Source: Escherichia coli
GTDB lineage: Bacteria > Pseudomonadota > Gammaproteobacteria > Enterobacterales > Enterobacteriaceae
Reading direction: 5' to 3' (one strand)
DNA: 64,000 nucleotides
NCBI RefSeq assembly: GCF_024223415.1
Contig: NZ_CP100500.1
A program made the translations under genes and the position numbers. How positions within the stretch are numbered: position 1 is the stretch's first letter; the number at the start of each line of letters is the position of its first letter. The notes beneath the pieces are model-generated. The model saw only the letters and a list, made by a program, of their open reading frames with translations, had not been told where the DNA came from and made no database searches. Below, in pieces: positions 1 to 10,496 of this stretch.

Positions 1-359
1 GATGGCGTAACAGAAAGTGATTTTTAACTTTACCGCTCTGTAACTACGGATTATTCCATGCTGGCACGGAGAACGGCTACGGCATGACGCCACCCAGCCT
101 ATACAGAACAGTAAAGCCGATAAATTGTTAATCACGCGCAGCAATGCGTGTGATTTTTGCACACTTCCGGTTAACGGGTACGATGTCCGGTTTGTTTGTA
201 CATTTTTTGCACATGTCCGGTTCGCAGAAAGCATGTTTTTATATTTTTCATATAGTTAACTTGCAGAGAAACCGGACATGGATCCCGAAAAATTTTCATA
301 AATAGTGAAAACGCGCGAGGTCGACGCCCCGTAACGGGTCCACATGCCGGAAAGGACCC

Positions 360-386
360 GCAAAAAAAGCCGGATTTCTCCGGCCT
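360..386 (-). terminator. Intrinsic terminator ending the capsid operon
   Basis: Hairpin gccggatttctccggc at 369..384 followed on the minus strand by a 7-nt T run, directly after the stop of the 137-aa gene. Confidence 0.55.
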
Positions 387-390
387 TGTC

Positions 391-804
391 TCAGATGGTT
401 TTCAGTATGCGATCGATGTTGCCGTCATCGACCGGGTTTCTGCCATCGTATGCCATGCCAGCTGATACGGCTTTCGGGCTGTGCATGTCCATAAAGTTTT
501 CAAAGGCTGAAGTAAGCTGTGGTGCAACCTTCGGGCGTTCCTGCTCTATGGTCATGCTAAGGATGCTTTTAGCCGTACCAACATCGATACAAGGCACGTT
601 AGCCATTGCACGTAACAGCGGCTGGTAGTCGTCAGATTCATGAAGCGCCATAATCGCATCAGCGCGCTGCTTGTCCTGTTCTTCCAGTTTGTTTAGTCGG
701 TGTATGGCCTCGTAGGTTGATAAACCTCTGTCAGCCATTGCCCGCGCTTCGGCTTTAAATTTACTCGCCAGCGGTAGCGTCATGATACTTTCATTCGTTG
801 CCAT
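391..804 (-). CDS. Hypothetical protein (137 aa), last gene of capsid operon
   Basis: ORF closely following the gpD-like gene on the same strand; protein-like composition; no family recognised from memory. Confidence 0.45.
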   Translation of the reverse strand: MATNESIMTLPLASKFKAEARAMADRGLSTYEAIHRLNKLEEQDKQRADAIMALHESDDYQPLLRAMANVPCIDVGTAKSILSMTIEQERPKVAPQLTSAFENFMDMHSPKAVSAGMAYDGRNPVDDGNIDRILKTI

Positions 805-816
805 CGTTCCCCCTGC

Positions 817-1152
817 TTATCGGGCCAGCGGCTGAACGGATACGCCGGAACCCGCAAAGGCGGCGCATTTTTTCGCATCGGTGTCGACGCTGTCAGGCCA
901 GTTAACGGCGGCAATATTGAATATCCCCGTTTTGTAACACTGTGCTGATTTCTGCTTTGACGTGTCCACGGGGTGCGAAGTCAGATAAACAGCTTTGCCA
1001 GATTCCTGACCATCCCACGCCTTAAACTCGCCATTGTCTGCCAGCATCAGCGGGGTAAATTCCTGAATAACGCCAGCATCAGCGGCAAAATGTACCAGCG
1101 TCGTGGATACCTGCTGGCTGCCTGCAAATAACTCAATATATGGAGCGTCCAT
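817..1152 (-). CDS. Head decoration protein, lambda gpD-like (111 aa)
   Basis: Length and motifs (TPLMLxD, KxWDG, KxAFAG) match my recollection of lambda gpD; adjacent to the gpE-like gene. Confidence 0.7.
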   Translation of the reverse strand: MDAPYIELFAGSQQVSTTLVHFAADAGVIQEFTPLMLADNGEFKAWDGQESGKAVYLTSHPVDTSKQKSAQCYKTGIFNIAAVNWPDSVDTDAKKCAAFAGSGVSVQPLAR

Positions 1153-1163
1153 AGAATCCCCCG

Positions 1164-8630: not shown

Positions 8631-8882
8631 TTACCGCCATTTTTTGGGCCTGCCTCCGATCTTCATAGATGCCGGACGTACGACCTTATCAATACTTACC
8701 GCCAGATTTCTGGAAGCGCCACGGGATACCAGAAAATCTACTACCTGTTTTTTTGATGGGGCCGTCGTCCTGTCCTCCGGATCGTAGGTTGACCAAAATT
8801 CATGCTGAACCATCAGGGCCAGTTGCAGCCCGTCGCAATTGCATCTGATATTTTTTTGCATCTTAACGGTTTCATGTTTCAC
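8631..8882 (-). CDS. Hypothetical protein (83 aa)
   Basis: ORF between int and alpA; basic C-terminus (GGRPKKWR); no family recognised. Confidence 0.3.
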   Translation of the reverse strand: MKHETVKMQKNIRCNCDGLQLALMVQHEFWSTYDPEDRTTAPSKKQVVDFLVSRGASRNLAVSIDKVVRPASMKIGGRPKKWR

Positions 8883-8959
8883 GGCCTTGTCGTTAAATTT
8901 GATGCAATTATACGACGGTTTTACATGGTTTTCGTAGTTTTTACTGGTTTTCTGTACAG

Positions 8960-10201
8960 CTACACGGCTCGGATACCCCTTTTACCACTGGCGAGGGTTA
9001 CGCCCGTCGCCGCAGCCTCGACAAATTCGCCCCACCAGCGCATCAGCACGATGCGTTTTTCTATGTAGTTGCTCCGGTTGTATGCCCGTCTAACTTCGTT
9101 GGTGTCGACGTGGGCAAGTGCCGCCTCTATTACGTCCGGCTCGAATCCTTCCTCGTTCGCTGCTGTGCTGAATATGGCGCGTAATCCATGAGACACCAGC
9201 ACGCCAGCGAATCCCATACGCCGCAATGCTGCGTTAGCTGTCTGGCTGTTCATCGGCTGCTGTGGGTCTTTCAGACTTGGGAAAACGTAATTGCGGTGGT
9301 GGCTGATTGGTTTCATGGCCTCCAGCACCGCCATAGCCTGACCGGAAAGCGGGATAACGTGATCCCTGCGCATCTTCATGCGTCCGGCAGGTATCGTCCA
9401 TTGCTTCGCGTCCAGGTTGATTTCATCCCACCGCGTTGATGACGCTTCGGCGGGACGGGTTACGGTCAGTAACTGCCATTCAATCAGTAATCTGGTCTGC
9501 CGTTCTGTTGCCGATACTGATAAAGCCTGCATAAGCTCGGGCAGCTGTTCGGGGCGGATTGTTGGCATATGTTTTTTTACAGGTGAGGGAAACGCCTTAC
9601 GCACATTCATAGCCGGATTGGCATCAATCAGCCCACTGTTGGCGGCGTAATCCATTACCTCATTAACGCGCTGTAAAACCCGCTTGAGTGTTTCCAGGTT
9701 GCCGCGCTCCTTGATGGGGGTAAGCACTTCAACGAACCTTCGGGCGGTGAGGGTATCTATTGGCGTGTTGCCGATGAACGGGAATACATATTTATCCAGC
9801 GAACGCCAGATGTCTTTAATCGTGTTGGGGGCCAGATTCTGGCTGATTTTCACCTGGTACCATGCCGCCGCCACATTTTCGAACGTGTTCCCTTGTCTTC
9901 GGGCCTCTGTCTCTCTTTTTTGCCTCTCGTGGTCCTGCGGGTCAGTTCCGGCACTGATTAACGTCCTGTACTCGCTACGGCGTTTTCTGGCATCAGCCAG
10001 GGAAACATCTTCAAGCGATCCAAAACTCAGCAATATTCTTTTTTTGTCCGATGGTCGGTAGTAGGAAAATCTCCAGAGTTTTGATCCAGACGGTTTGACC
10101 AGGAGAAAAAGCCCTCCGCCGTCCTGCAGGGTGTACTCCTTTTGCGCTGGTCTGGCTGCTTTGATCTGCACTGTGGTTAATGGGTGTGTTTTTCTCGCCA
10201 T
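8960..10201 (-). CDS. int: Tyrosine recombinase/integrase, P4-type with N-terminal arm-binding domain (about 413 aa)
   Basis: N-terminus (YxLxDGGGLxLxVxPSGSKxWRFxYR) typical of P4-family integrases; catalytic C-terminal domain; about 220 bp from the tRNA-Pro 3' end. Start trimmed to the second Met. Confidence 0.85.
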   Translation of the reverse strand: MARKTHPLTTVQIKAARPAQKEYTLQDGGGLFLLVKPSGSKLWRFSYYRPSDKKRILLSFGSLEDVSLADARKRRSEYRTLISAGTDPQDHERQKRETEARRQGNTFENVAAAWYQVKISQNLAPNTIKDIWRSLDKYVFPFIGNTPIDTLTARRFVEVLTPIKERGNLETLKRVLQRVNEVMDYAANSGLIDANPAMNVRKAFPSPVKKHMPTIRPEQLPELMQALSVSATERQTRLLIEWQLLTVTRPAEASSTRWDEINLDAKQWTIPAGRMKMRRDHVIPLSGQAMAVLEAMKPISHHRNYVFPSLKDPQQPMNSQTANAALRRMGFAGVLVSHGLRAIFSTAANEEGFEPDVIEAALAHVDTNEVRRAYNRSNYIEKRIVLMRWWGEFVEAAATGVTLASGKRGIRAV

Positions 10202-10234
10202 ATGTCTATGATTCCACACGAAAAAACAGGGTTT

Positions 10235-10286
10235 TAGTTATACGGCTTTAGTTATACGTCAGCCCGTATAACTAAACGTATAACTA
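10235..10286. repeat. Symmetric repeat array between int and tRNA-Pro
   Basis: TAGTTATACG at 10235 and 10249, inverted CGTATAACTA at 10265 and 10277, giving a 52-bp dyad. Confidence 0.4.
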
Positions 10287-10419
10287 AAAAATCCGGCTGA
10301 TAGCTTATAAATCCGGTGATGTTCGGTGACTAAAAAACATAAAAAAACCCGCCAATCAAGTGATTAGCGGGTTATCCCTGTCTTATCCGGTGCTTTCCGG
10401 TGATATCCGGTGGGCGATT

Positions 10420-10496
10420 TGGTCGGCACGAGAGGATTTGAACCTCCGACCCCCGACACCCCATGACGGTGCGCTACCAGGCTGCGCTACGTGCCG
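10420..10496 (-). tRNA. proL: tRNA-Pro (anticodon GGG)
   Basis: Reverse complement reads CGGCACGTAGCGCAGCCTGGTAGCGCACCGTCATGGGGTGTCGGGGGTCGGAGGTTCAAATCCTCTCGTGCCGACCA, which matches E. coli proL from memory. Confidence 0.9.

Follow-up and report, generated by a model that had tools for sequence, protein, structure and literature searches.

A phage-like gene cluster that lies beside a tRNA gene and includes a capsid gene, with no terminase, portal or tail gene, could be the end of a prophage, a satellite of a known kind or something new. This question is raised by the island next to proL at the left end of a 64,000-nucleotide stretch of the Escherichia coli chromosome (contig NZ_CP100500.1, referred to here as the window). 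Window positions 1-10500 are 100% identical to E. coli GF4, and GF4 locus L001 was used for the flank to the left of the window. The island is very probably a Gram-negative phage-inducible chromosomal island (PICI) of the cos type, the group typified by EcCICFT073, whose P4/CP4-57-type integrase has placed it in the 3' end of proL. It belongs, as a mosaic member, to a published, named family and occupies a published site; the family, its packaging mechanism and the integration site have been known since 2018-2019. A first-pass annotation of the window had called the island a satellite and not a prophage, which the att cores 11.2 kb apart and the flanking core genes bear out, but had also held that it matched no described family, which must be withdrawn. 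The published EcCICFT073 has the same architecture and a capsid module 91-95% identical, and EcCIATCC25922, at the same site, shares the integrase and AlpA. By that annotation's own statement an identical island already described as a named family would remove the novelty, and this is essentially the situation.

Two copies, and no more, of a 10-bp att core, GGCACGAGAG, are present in 40.5 kb of GF4 (0.06 expected), one in the tRNA and the other to the left of the window, and the distance between the two cores gives an element length of 11,228 bp. The far boundary had been predicted to lie outside the window, and a leftward search for a repeat of the proL 3' end had been proposed; such a search meets the far core 804-813 bp left of the window. 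The part of the element beyond the window edge, about 0.8 kb, contains a second cos site and a conserved 93-aa gene. Past the far core come yejO, narP and the ccm genes, without phage genes, and not the terminase, portal and tail genes that, if found directly to the left, would have made this the end of an ordinary prophage. In empty-site genomes (e.g. BW25113), yejO is directly joined to proL, and the island is situated between the two. Core genome without a prophage makes up the other 53 kb of the window. With both att cores located and core genes on the flanks, the element is not the end of a prophage. All annotated coding sequences (CDSs) of the island are on the minus strand. An Rfam scan of window 1-10600 returned the tRNA only, and PADLOC gave zero defence genes. 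The displaced 3' fragment of the tRNA at the far att, about 805-820 bp to the left of the window (L001 14180-14196), is damaged, reading TTGGCACGAGAG versus GGTCGGCACGAGAG, and the intact proL 3' end, together with its terminator (window 10346-10373), is provided by the island. According to a 2023 paper, damage to the displaced tRNA fragment may be particular to PICIs.

Most of the features by which PICIs are recognized can be found in the element. The integrase is at one end, beside an att site listed for PICIs and 218 bp from the proL 3' end (about 220 bp in the first-pass annotation). An AlpA activator follows int, transcription runs in one direction, and the element has its own replication protein and then an iteron origin. 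Its size of 11.2 kb falls in the required range of about 8-15 kb, and PHROG scans of the annotated CDSs found no terminase (large subunit included), portal, protease, tail or lysis gene. Lambda-like cosQ and cosN sequences are combined with a non-lambda cosB. The missing feature is an rpp or terS gene between the cos sites, where only a 22-codon rppA remnant is present. In this inventory the earlier reading was largely correct: the AlpA-like regulator is present, with weak family matches, the RepA-like helicase has its iterons next to it, the SSB (single-stranded DNA-binding protein), PerC-like and FinO-like genes are all supported by profile matches, FinO below curated cut-offs, and the absence of terminase, portal, protease and tail genes agrees with the scans.

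The assignment to the EcCICFT073 family comes from gene order and from protein identity. The island is colinear with the islands of CFT073, Nissle 1917, strain 12689 and Ch1. EcCICFT073 has the order int, alpA, early small genes with an Icd-like gene, DUF4222, rep, origin, a small protein, SSB, PerC, c1498-c1501, cos, cos and the 93-aa gene, and it resembles the island in its two convergent lambda-type cos sites and its size of about 11 kb. The 93-aa proteins are 89% identical, and the four capsid-operon proteins, which correspond to c1498-c1501 by Table S2, are closer still (Table 1). In Fillol-Salom 2018, EcCICFT073 was described with a putative capsid gene (c1499), a head decoration gene (c1500) and two lambda-like cosN with non-lambda cosB; induction by lambda and phi80 depended on AlpA, transfer depended on int and pri, and packaging depended on cos. 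Capsid genes are recorded in 21 of the 29 reference Gram-negative PICIs of the 2023 paper. The two elements differ in their integrase and AlpA, which are merely 24% identical, and in their sites (ycfD-phoQ there, proL here). EcCICFT073 has a P4-type primase where the island has a RepA-type helicase (26% identical to this primase, as it is to that of Nissle), and the island has an extra ProQ/FinO gene, an rppA remnant and swapped cosB flanks. Four AlpA and four Pri-Rep alleles are known among E. coli PICIs (Fillol-Salom 2018), so a mosaic composition is expected. The helicase represents one of the alleles of the PICI replication module, and the rep protein of the strain 12689 PICI is 86% identical to it.

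The integration site leads to a second set of relatives. Table S1 of Fillol-Salom 2018 lists EcCIATCC25922, EcCIED1a.1, EcCI11128 and EcCI11368.1, as well as Shigella examples, at the yejM-luxR (narP, proL) site, and the first three, at 11.3-11.4 kb, are near the island in size. The comparison with proL-site PICIs covered the ATCC 25922 copy and the Nissle 1917 copy, which is the same element. EcCIATCC25922 has the same site, the same RefSeq integrase (also common to the Nissle island), 76-aa and AlpA proteins, and a capsid module 88-95% identical. In contrast to the island, the ATCC 25922/Nissle element has a P4-type primase and another early region, lacks the ProQ/FinO and PerC genes, and carries a 180-aa Nu1-like terS between its cos sites (35% identical to lambda Nu1).

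The cos region is where the GF4 copy departs furthest from its family. A lambda-type cos site and the rppA remnant, both overlooked by the first-pass annotation, lie at the left end of the window. This cos site can be aligned position by position with the junction of lambda cos across its cosQ-like block, its nick region (GTTACG/GGGCGTCGACCT) and the I2-like block that follows. The second site, convergent with the first, falls outside the window, about 0.5 kb further left (cosN at L001 14794-14805), and both cores align to lambda cosQ-cosN-I2 and to the published cos1 and cos2 of EcCICFT073. The flanks have been exchanged. A cos2-type flank with CCGGACAT repeats is joined to the core beside the 137-aa gene, and the core beside the 93-aa gene has a Nissle-type cos1 flank; both cosB flanks are inverted relative to other family members, and neither matches the lambda R elements. 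No rpp or terS gene was found in the inter-cos segment, where tblastn with RppA and the Nissle TerS gives the remnant only. By blastn, window 28-99 is 83-85% identical to the rppA of CFT073 and Ch1. The corresponding CFT073 gene (c1503, RppA, 144 aa) matches RppC (PDB 6hlk) with an E value of 5e-31. The 93-aa gene and the CCGGACAT-repeat flank were both considered as an Rpp system, and both were ruled out by this PDB match, which makes the 144-aa gene Rpp, and by the published Figure S1, which makes the CCGGACAT flank cos2. None of the 93-aa, 137-aa and Nissle TerS proteins had a meaningful match in sequence searches of the PDB. A single inversion between the inverted cos cores would account for the swapped flanks but leaves the orientation of the rppA remnant unexplained, so more than one rearrangement event is needed.

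The history of this change can be read from a close sister. The Ch1 island is 99.9% identical from window position 296 on and has an intact rppA (95% identical to RppA), and the exact GF4 arrangement is found in only about 4-6 complete genomes. The loss of rpp is therefore recent and confined to a handful of genomes, and we read the missing gene as a secondary loss in the GF4 copy, which is no argument against family membership. Several observations nevertheless count against a straightforward assignment. Rpp is absent and the inter-cos segment is rearranged. The core beside the 137-aa gene has a cos2-type cosB, which is not Rpp-responsive in EcCICFT073. Both cosN sequences, GGGCGTCGACCT, are one base (G6T) off the GGGCGGCGACCT of lambda, phi80 and EcCICFT073. 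The AlpA match to Pfam Phage_AlpA is weak (E 0.004), and the Icd-like gene lacks the normal stop codon present in CFT073.

How such an island would move can be outlined from its studied relative, EcCICFT073, and for the GF4 copy each step is an analogy. A lambdoid cos helper phage, by infection or induction, would switch on alpA, and AlpA would activate the leftward operon. Int would excise the 11.2-kb element, and the RepA-type helicase, acting with the iteron origin, would produce concatemers. The helper terminase would then cut the lambda-type cosN of the island and fill helper heads, with helper tails and lysis functions finishing the transfer. Four island copies amount to 44.9 kb, about 93% of the lambda genome; the lambda packaging window accommodates such a length, which also fits the published observation that packaged EcCICFT073 DNA is all phage-sized. 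In normal family members, an rpp or Nu1-like terS gene between the convergent cos sites would divert the helper terminase to the island. For Rpp, a heterocomplex of RppA and helper TerS redirects packaging to the island cos1 (Fillol-Salom 2019). With rpp lost, excision and replication should be kept, packaging should be less efficient and the Rpp-mediated block of the helper should be gone. By analogy, we predict that the GF4 island still excises and replicates, with reduced transfer and no Rpp interference. The cos2-type cosB, together with the loss of rpp, makes the efficiency of packaging uncertain.

The same changes can be taken further. The island could be an inactive relic, a member of the PICI family that became immobile after the rpp loss and cos rearrangement and is now inherited only vertically. 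The absence of rpp and terS, the rearranged inter-cos segment, the Icd-like gene that reads through into junk-like sequence and the restriction of the exact arrangement to about 4-6 complete genomes all fit such a history, and rppA mutants of EcCICFT073 transfer significantly less well (Fillol-Salom 2019). Against this stand an intact int, alpA, rep and origin, two intact cos cores and a full set of intact capsid-module genes, and other islands carry identical Int and AlpA proteins. Loss of Rpp is also not the end of transfer, as plasmids with EcCICFT073 cos1 or cos2 alone are still moved by lambda and phi80 without it, at a lower level (Fillol-Salom 2018, 2019), and Rpp from another PICI in the cell could act in trans. 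A 10.5-kb island query matched 8 places in the GF4 chromosome, one or more of which might represent such a PICI. On balance a relic is unlikely, though it deserves some weight, and the island is better regarded as a PICI that has lost its Rpp.

The capsid operon raises a different possibility. It had been described as containing only gpE-like and gpD-like genes, and while these two are present, the operon also includes a 68-aa gene at its start and a 137-aa gene at its end that had been overlooked. Of 5,426 complete E. coli genomes, 591 (~11%) carry the four-gene module, and its proteins are 88-95% conserved among islands whose integrases are merely 24% identical. With dN/dS values of 0.08-0.45, the capsid-module genes are under purifying selection and are thus maintained. 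The phage collection contains no phage capsid protein above 60% identity. The 137-aa protein matches positions 494-566 of the 583 in phrog_53, the C-terminal part of a gpC-type protease/scaffold profile (E 9e-8), and over 70 aa it shares 36% of its residues with the tail of a gpC-like protein of a CFT073 lambdoid prophage. An exhaustive search gave as remote homologue a 195-aa Nu3-like scaffold (P0041). The 137-aa protein can be aligned colinearly to the final ~95 residues of lambda gpC/Nu3, with a FExFMxxHSP block and an extreme C-terminal LxT motif in the alignment. From these alignments it is scaffold-tail-like, resembling the C-terminal tail of gpC/Nu3, which is a small new point. The name given by NCBI, 'phage head-tail connector protein', is probably a misannotation spread over many E. 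coli records. A tblastn search with the 137-aa protein against the phage collection gave no matches. A single-sequence AlphaFold model of it had a pLDDT of 48, too poor for a fold search, and the available homologues are too mutually similar to improve it. The island order of E, D and scaffold tail is the reverse of the lambda order Nu3, D, E.

Small satellite proteins with a resemblance to helper head proteins are familiar from Staphylococcus aureus pathogenicity islands (SaPIs). SaPIbov5, a cos SaPI, has, like the island, a helper cos site and a homologue of the helper capsid protein (Ccm), and the scaffold mimic CpmB of SaPI1 is, like the 137-aa protein, a small protein resembling the C terminus of the helper scaffold. 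CpmB competes with the helper scaffold. In contrast, the SaPI proteins demonstrably make small capsids.

The island could therefore be imagined as a partly capsid-forming satellite, between a classical PICI and a capsid-forming PICI (cf-PICI), in which the gpE-, gpD- and Nu3-tail-like proteins and the 68-aa protein build or remodel capsids using the portal, protease and tails of a helper. The conservation of the four genes across islands with divergent integrases, their dN/dS values and the likeness of the 137-aa protein, with its C-terminal repeat and its tail of a helper-type gpC/Nu3 scaffold, to CpmB would all suit this idea. In published work, however, deletion of c1499 or c1500 left transfer and interference unchanged (Fillol-Salom 2018), and all packaged EcCICFT073 DNA was phage-sized. 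The marked EcCICFT073 derivatives used in that work carry cat in place of c1499 or tetA at c1501, so a role in capsid assembly could have escaped notice. The intact module may never have been examined for capsid effects in published work, the disruption of c1501 by tetA being inferred from the '::' notation alone. Self-sufficiency is impossible without a portal, protease and terminase large subunit, and this separates the island from the cf-PICIs (e.g. EcCIEDL933; Alqurainy et al.). These are also integrative satellites with their own capsid protein gene and, by their published description, encode all of their capsid and DNA-packaging proteins and steal only tails. The island lacks a terminase large subunit, portal, protease and head-tail connectors. 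A cf-PICI as such was rejected, the complete set being terS, terL, portal, protease, capsid and connectors, of which the island has only capsid-, decoration- and scaffold-tail-like genes. Taken together, these points make a partly capsid-forming satellite improbable. The more specific proposal, that the operon is a working partial capsid kit which, with helper portal and protease, builds or remodels heads for the island or poisons the head assembly of some helpers, is likewise given little credence. A Gram-negative cos PICI with a conserved capsid module is the preferred description.

The end or remnant of a lambdoid prophage, or a P4-like satellite, is suggested by the lambda-like capsid, decoration and cos sequences and by the P4/CP4-57 type of the integrase and AlpA, but can hardly be sustained given the two att cores with core-gene flanks and no further phage genes, the distance of the capsid protein from those of phages, the AAA_25 helicase, the lambda-type and not P2-type cos, and the argument of Fillol-Salom 2018 that E. 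coli PICIs and P4 are separate lineages. For the prophage, whole or in part, the left flank offers 0.8 kb of island followed by yejO, narP and ccm, and the rest of the window is core genome. P4 itself is like the island in its integrase type, AlpA/Vis-like regulator, helper-dependent cos packaging and integration at a tRNA 3' end. The island differs from P4 in lacking sid, psu, delta, epsilon and alpha and in its lambda-like capsid genes. The scanned island proteins gave no PHROG matches to sid, psu, delta or an alpha-type primase, in agreement with the first-pass annotation on the P4 genes, although dedicated Sid, Psu and Delta profiles were not run.

The remaining features of the PICI are collected in Table 1, and some of them require comment. 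Besides the sites beside the integrase, two further TAGTTATACG sites lie at the far end of the island. These are probably arm-type integrase sites, and the TAGTTATACG repeats correspond to the 'att core' strings given for the yejM-narP site in Table S1 of Fillol-Salom 2018. The AlpA matches are full-length but weak (PHROG 66, E 5e-7). The 76-aa protein had zero family matches in PHROG and NCBIfam, and NCBIfam gave no matches for the small conserved island proteins. Nine copies of the iteron AAGTGGGGAG (at most 1 mismatch, one inverted) are found within 190 bp (4354-4544), directly past the helicase stop codon, with only three matches in the other 63.8 kb. A replication origin is predicted from this clustering, and its position directly after rep is the placement described for PICIs (Fillol-Salom 2018; 2023 paper). 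The ProQ/FinO gene, situated between perC and the capsid operon, is RNA-chaperone-like cargo without a counterpart in the CFT073, Nissle and strain 12689 islands, and a literature search gave zero descriptions of FinO-like genes in PICIs. The hairpin after the capsid operon has a 90% identical copy at 2637-2666, past the FinO-like gene; the hairpin at 363..392 was not listed by the consensus scan.

The early region is the most variable part of the island. Most of the 595-aa 'Icd-like' CDS has the look of junk sequence. Its family matches are limited to residues ~188-246 (Icd-like, NF033153, E 3e-16) and 474-594 (phrog_2512), and it is probably a read-through or shadow open reading frame (ORF) across several small genes. 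A rare insert of about 0.7 kb (6800-7517) is present in only three complete E. coli genomes; a search of the phage collection with 6800-7520 gave zero matches. The plus strand of the insert is A-rich and has small ORFs at 6897..7067 and 7311..7505 with a common FPLE[DR]FI motif, visible at the DNA level as a repeat (7018-7048 / 7405-7435). Further along, within 7748-7985, the minus strand has a strong sigma-70-like promoter at 7815..7787 that agrees with the consensus at 11 of 12 positions. It is overlapped by a 24-nt inverted repeat (7748-7771 / 7809-7832) and by the start of a plus-strand 58-aa ORF with weak ribbon-helix-helix matches (RHH_1, E 0.03; YlcI_YnfO_N, E 0.004, below cut-off). Region 7748-7985 may act as a regulatory switch for the island; in published PICI work the repressor of these PICIs is still unidentified. 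Outside the island, yejA (window ~22529-24341) is a frameshifted pseudogene by the GF4 annotation.

Table 1. Features of the proL island, in window coordinates except where GF4 locus L001 is given.
Feature	Position	Strand	Evidence or remark
att core GGCACGAGAG, far copy	GF4 L001 14187-14196		804-813 bp left of window position 1
Right part of inter-cos segment	1..283		segment starts ~165 bp left of window; compared with CFT073, Ch1 and Nissle
rppA remnant, last 22 codons	33..98	-	tblastn, RppA residues 123-144: 73% identity, E 9e-5
cosB flank of EcCICFT073 cos2 type, CCGGACAT repeats	95..283	-	90-93% identical, inverted, to cos2 flank of CFT073 and Ch1
Lambda-type cos core	283..361	-	cosQ-like 347-361; cosN 318-329; aligned to lambda cos junction and both EcCICFT073 cos sites
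Terminator-like hairpin GCCGGA-GAAA-TCCGGC with T run, after capsid operon	363..392	-	direct repeat D5
137-aa protein, orthologue of c1501	391..804	-	91% to c1501; phrog_53 match
gpD-like head decoration protein, orthologue of c1500	817..1152	-	phrog_49, E 2e-27; 36% to lambda gpD; 95% to c1500
gpE-like major capsid protein, orthologue of c1499	1164..2219	-	phrog_29, E 4e-109; 43% to lambda gpE; 95% to c1499; dN/dS 0.08-0.17
68-aa protein, orthologue of c1498, first gene of capsid operon	2219..2425	-	phrog_3255, E 9e-36; 93% to c1498; dN/dS 0.11-0.15
ProQ/FinO-family protein	2684..3268	-	ProQ and FinO models, E ~3e-21, below curated cut-offs; RefSeq annotation
PerC-family regulator	3348..3668	-	Pfam PerC PF06069, E 1e-26
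SSB	3686..4096	-	TIGR00621, 57 bits, above cut-off; phrog_44
83-aa conserved PICI protein	4093..4344	-	phrog_1231, E 1e-48
Predicted replication origin	4345..4545		two AAGTGGGGAG iteron clusters flanking AT-rich centre
RepA-type replicative helicase	4546..5961	-	AAA_25, E 2e-43; phrog_2850
DUF4222 protein	5958..6257	-	RefSeq; phrog_285
66-aa conserved small protein	6262..6462	-	phrog_340, E 2e-18
'Icd-like' 595-aa CDS, variable early region	6455..8242	-	Icd-like domain 7500-7681; phrog_2512-like protein 6458-6823
AlpA-family activator (helix-turn-helix)	8257..8463	-	RefSeq AlpA family; WP_000387478.1, same accession in EcCIATCC25922
76-aa hypothetical protein, between int and alpA	8631..8861	-	RefSeq CDS; also in EcCIATCC25922
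P4/CP4-57-type tyrosine integrase	8960..10201	-	Arm-DNA-bind_3, Phage_int_M and Phage_integrase; NF007246, 552 bits; WP_000101718.1
TAGTTATACG sites, four (2 direct, 2 inverted)	10235..10286		7 matches in 40.5 kb vs 1.1 expected
proL, tRNA-Pro(GGG)	10420..10496	-	ARAGORN and Rfam
att core GGCACGAGAG, near copy	10425-10434		inside proL tRNA

The island is best labelled a PICI of the EcCICFT073 type. Its value as a discovery is small, as the family, mechanism and site were already published in 2018-2019. Its annotation can be improved in two places: the 595-aa 'Icd-like' CDS is not trustworthy, and the 137-aa product is, by its alignments, better named as gpC/Nu3 scaffold-tail-like than as a connector. 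The presence of the capsid module in about 11% of complete E. coli genomes offers a lead on the role of a conserved operon. In addition, a natural rpp-less variant with swapped cosB flanks and its near-identical, rpp-positive Ch1 sister form a ready pair for gauging the contribution of Rpp.

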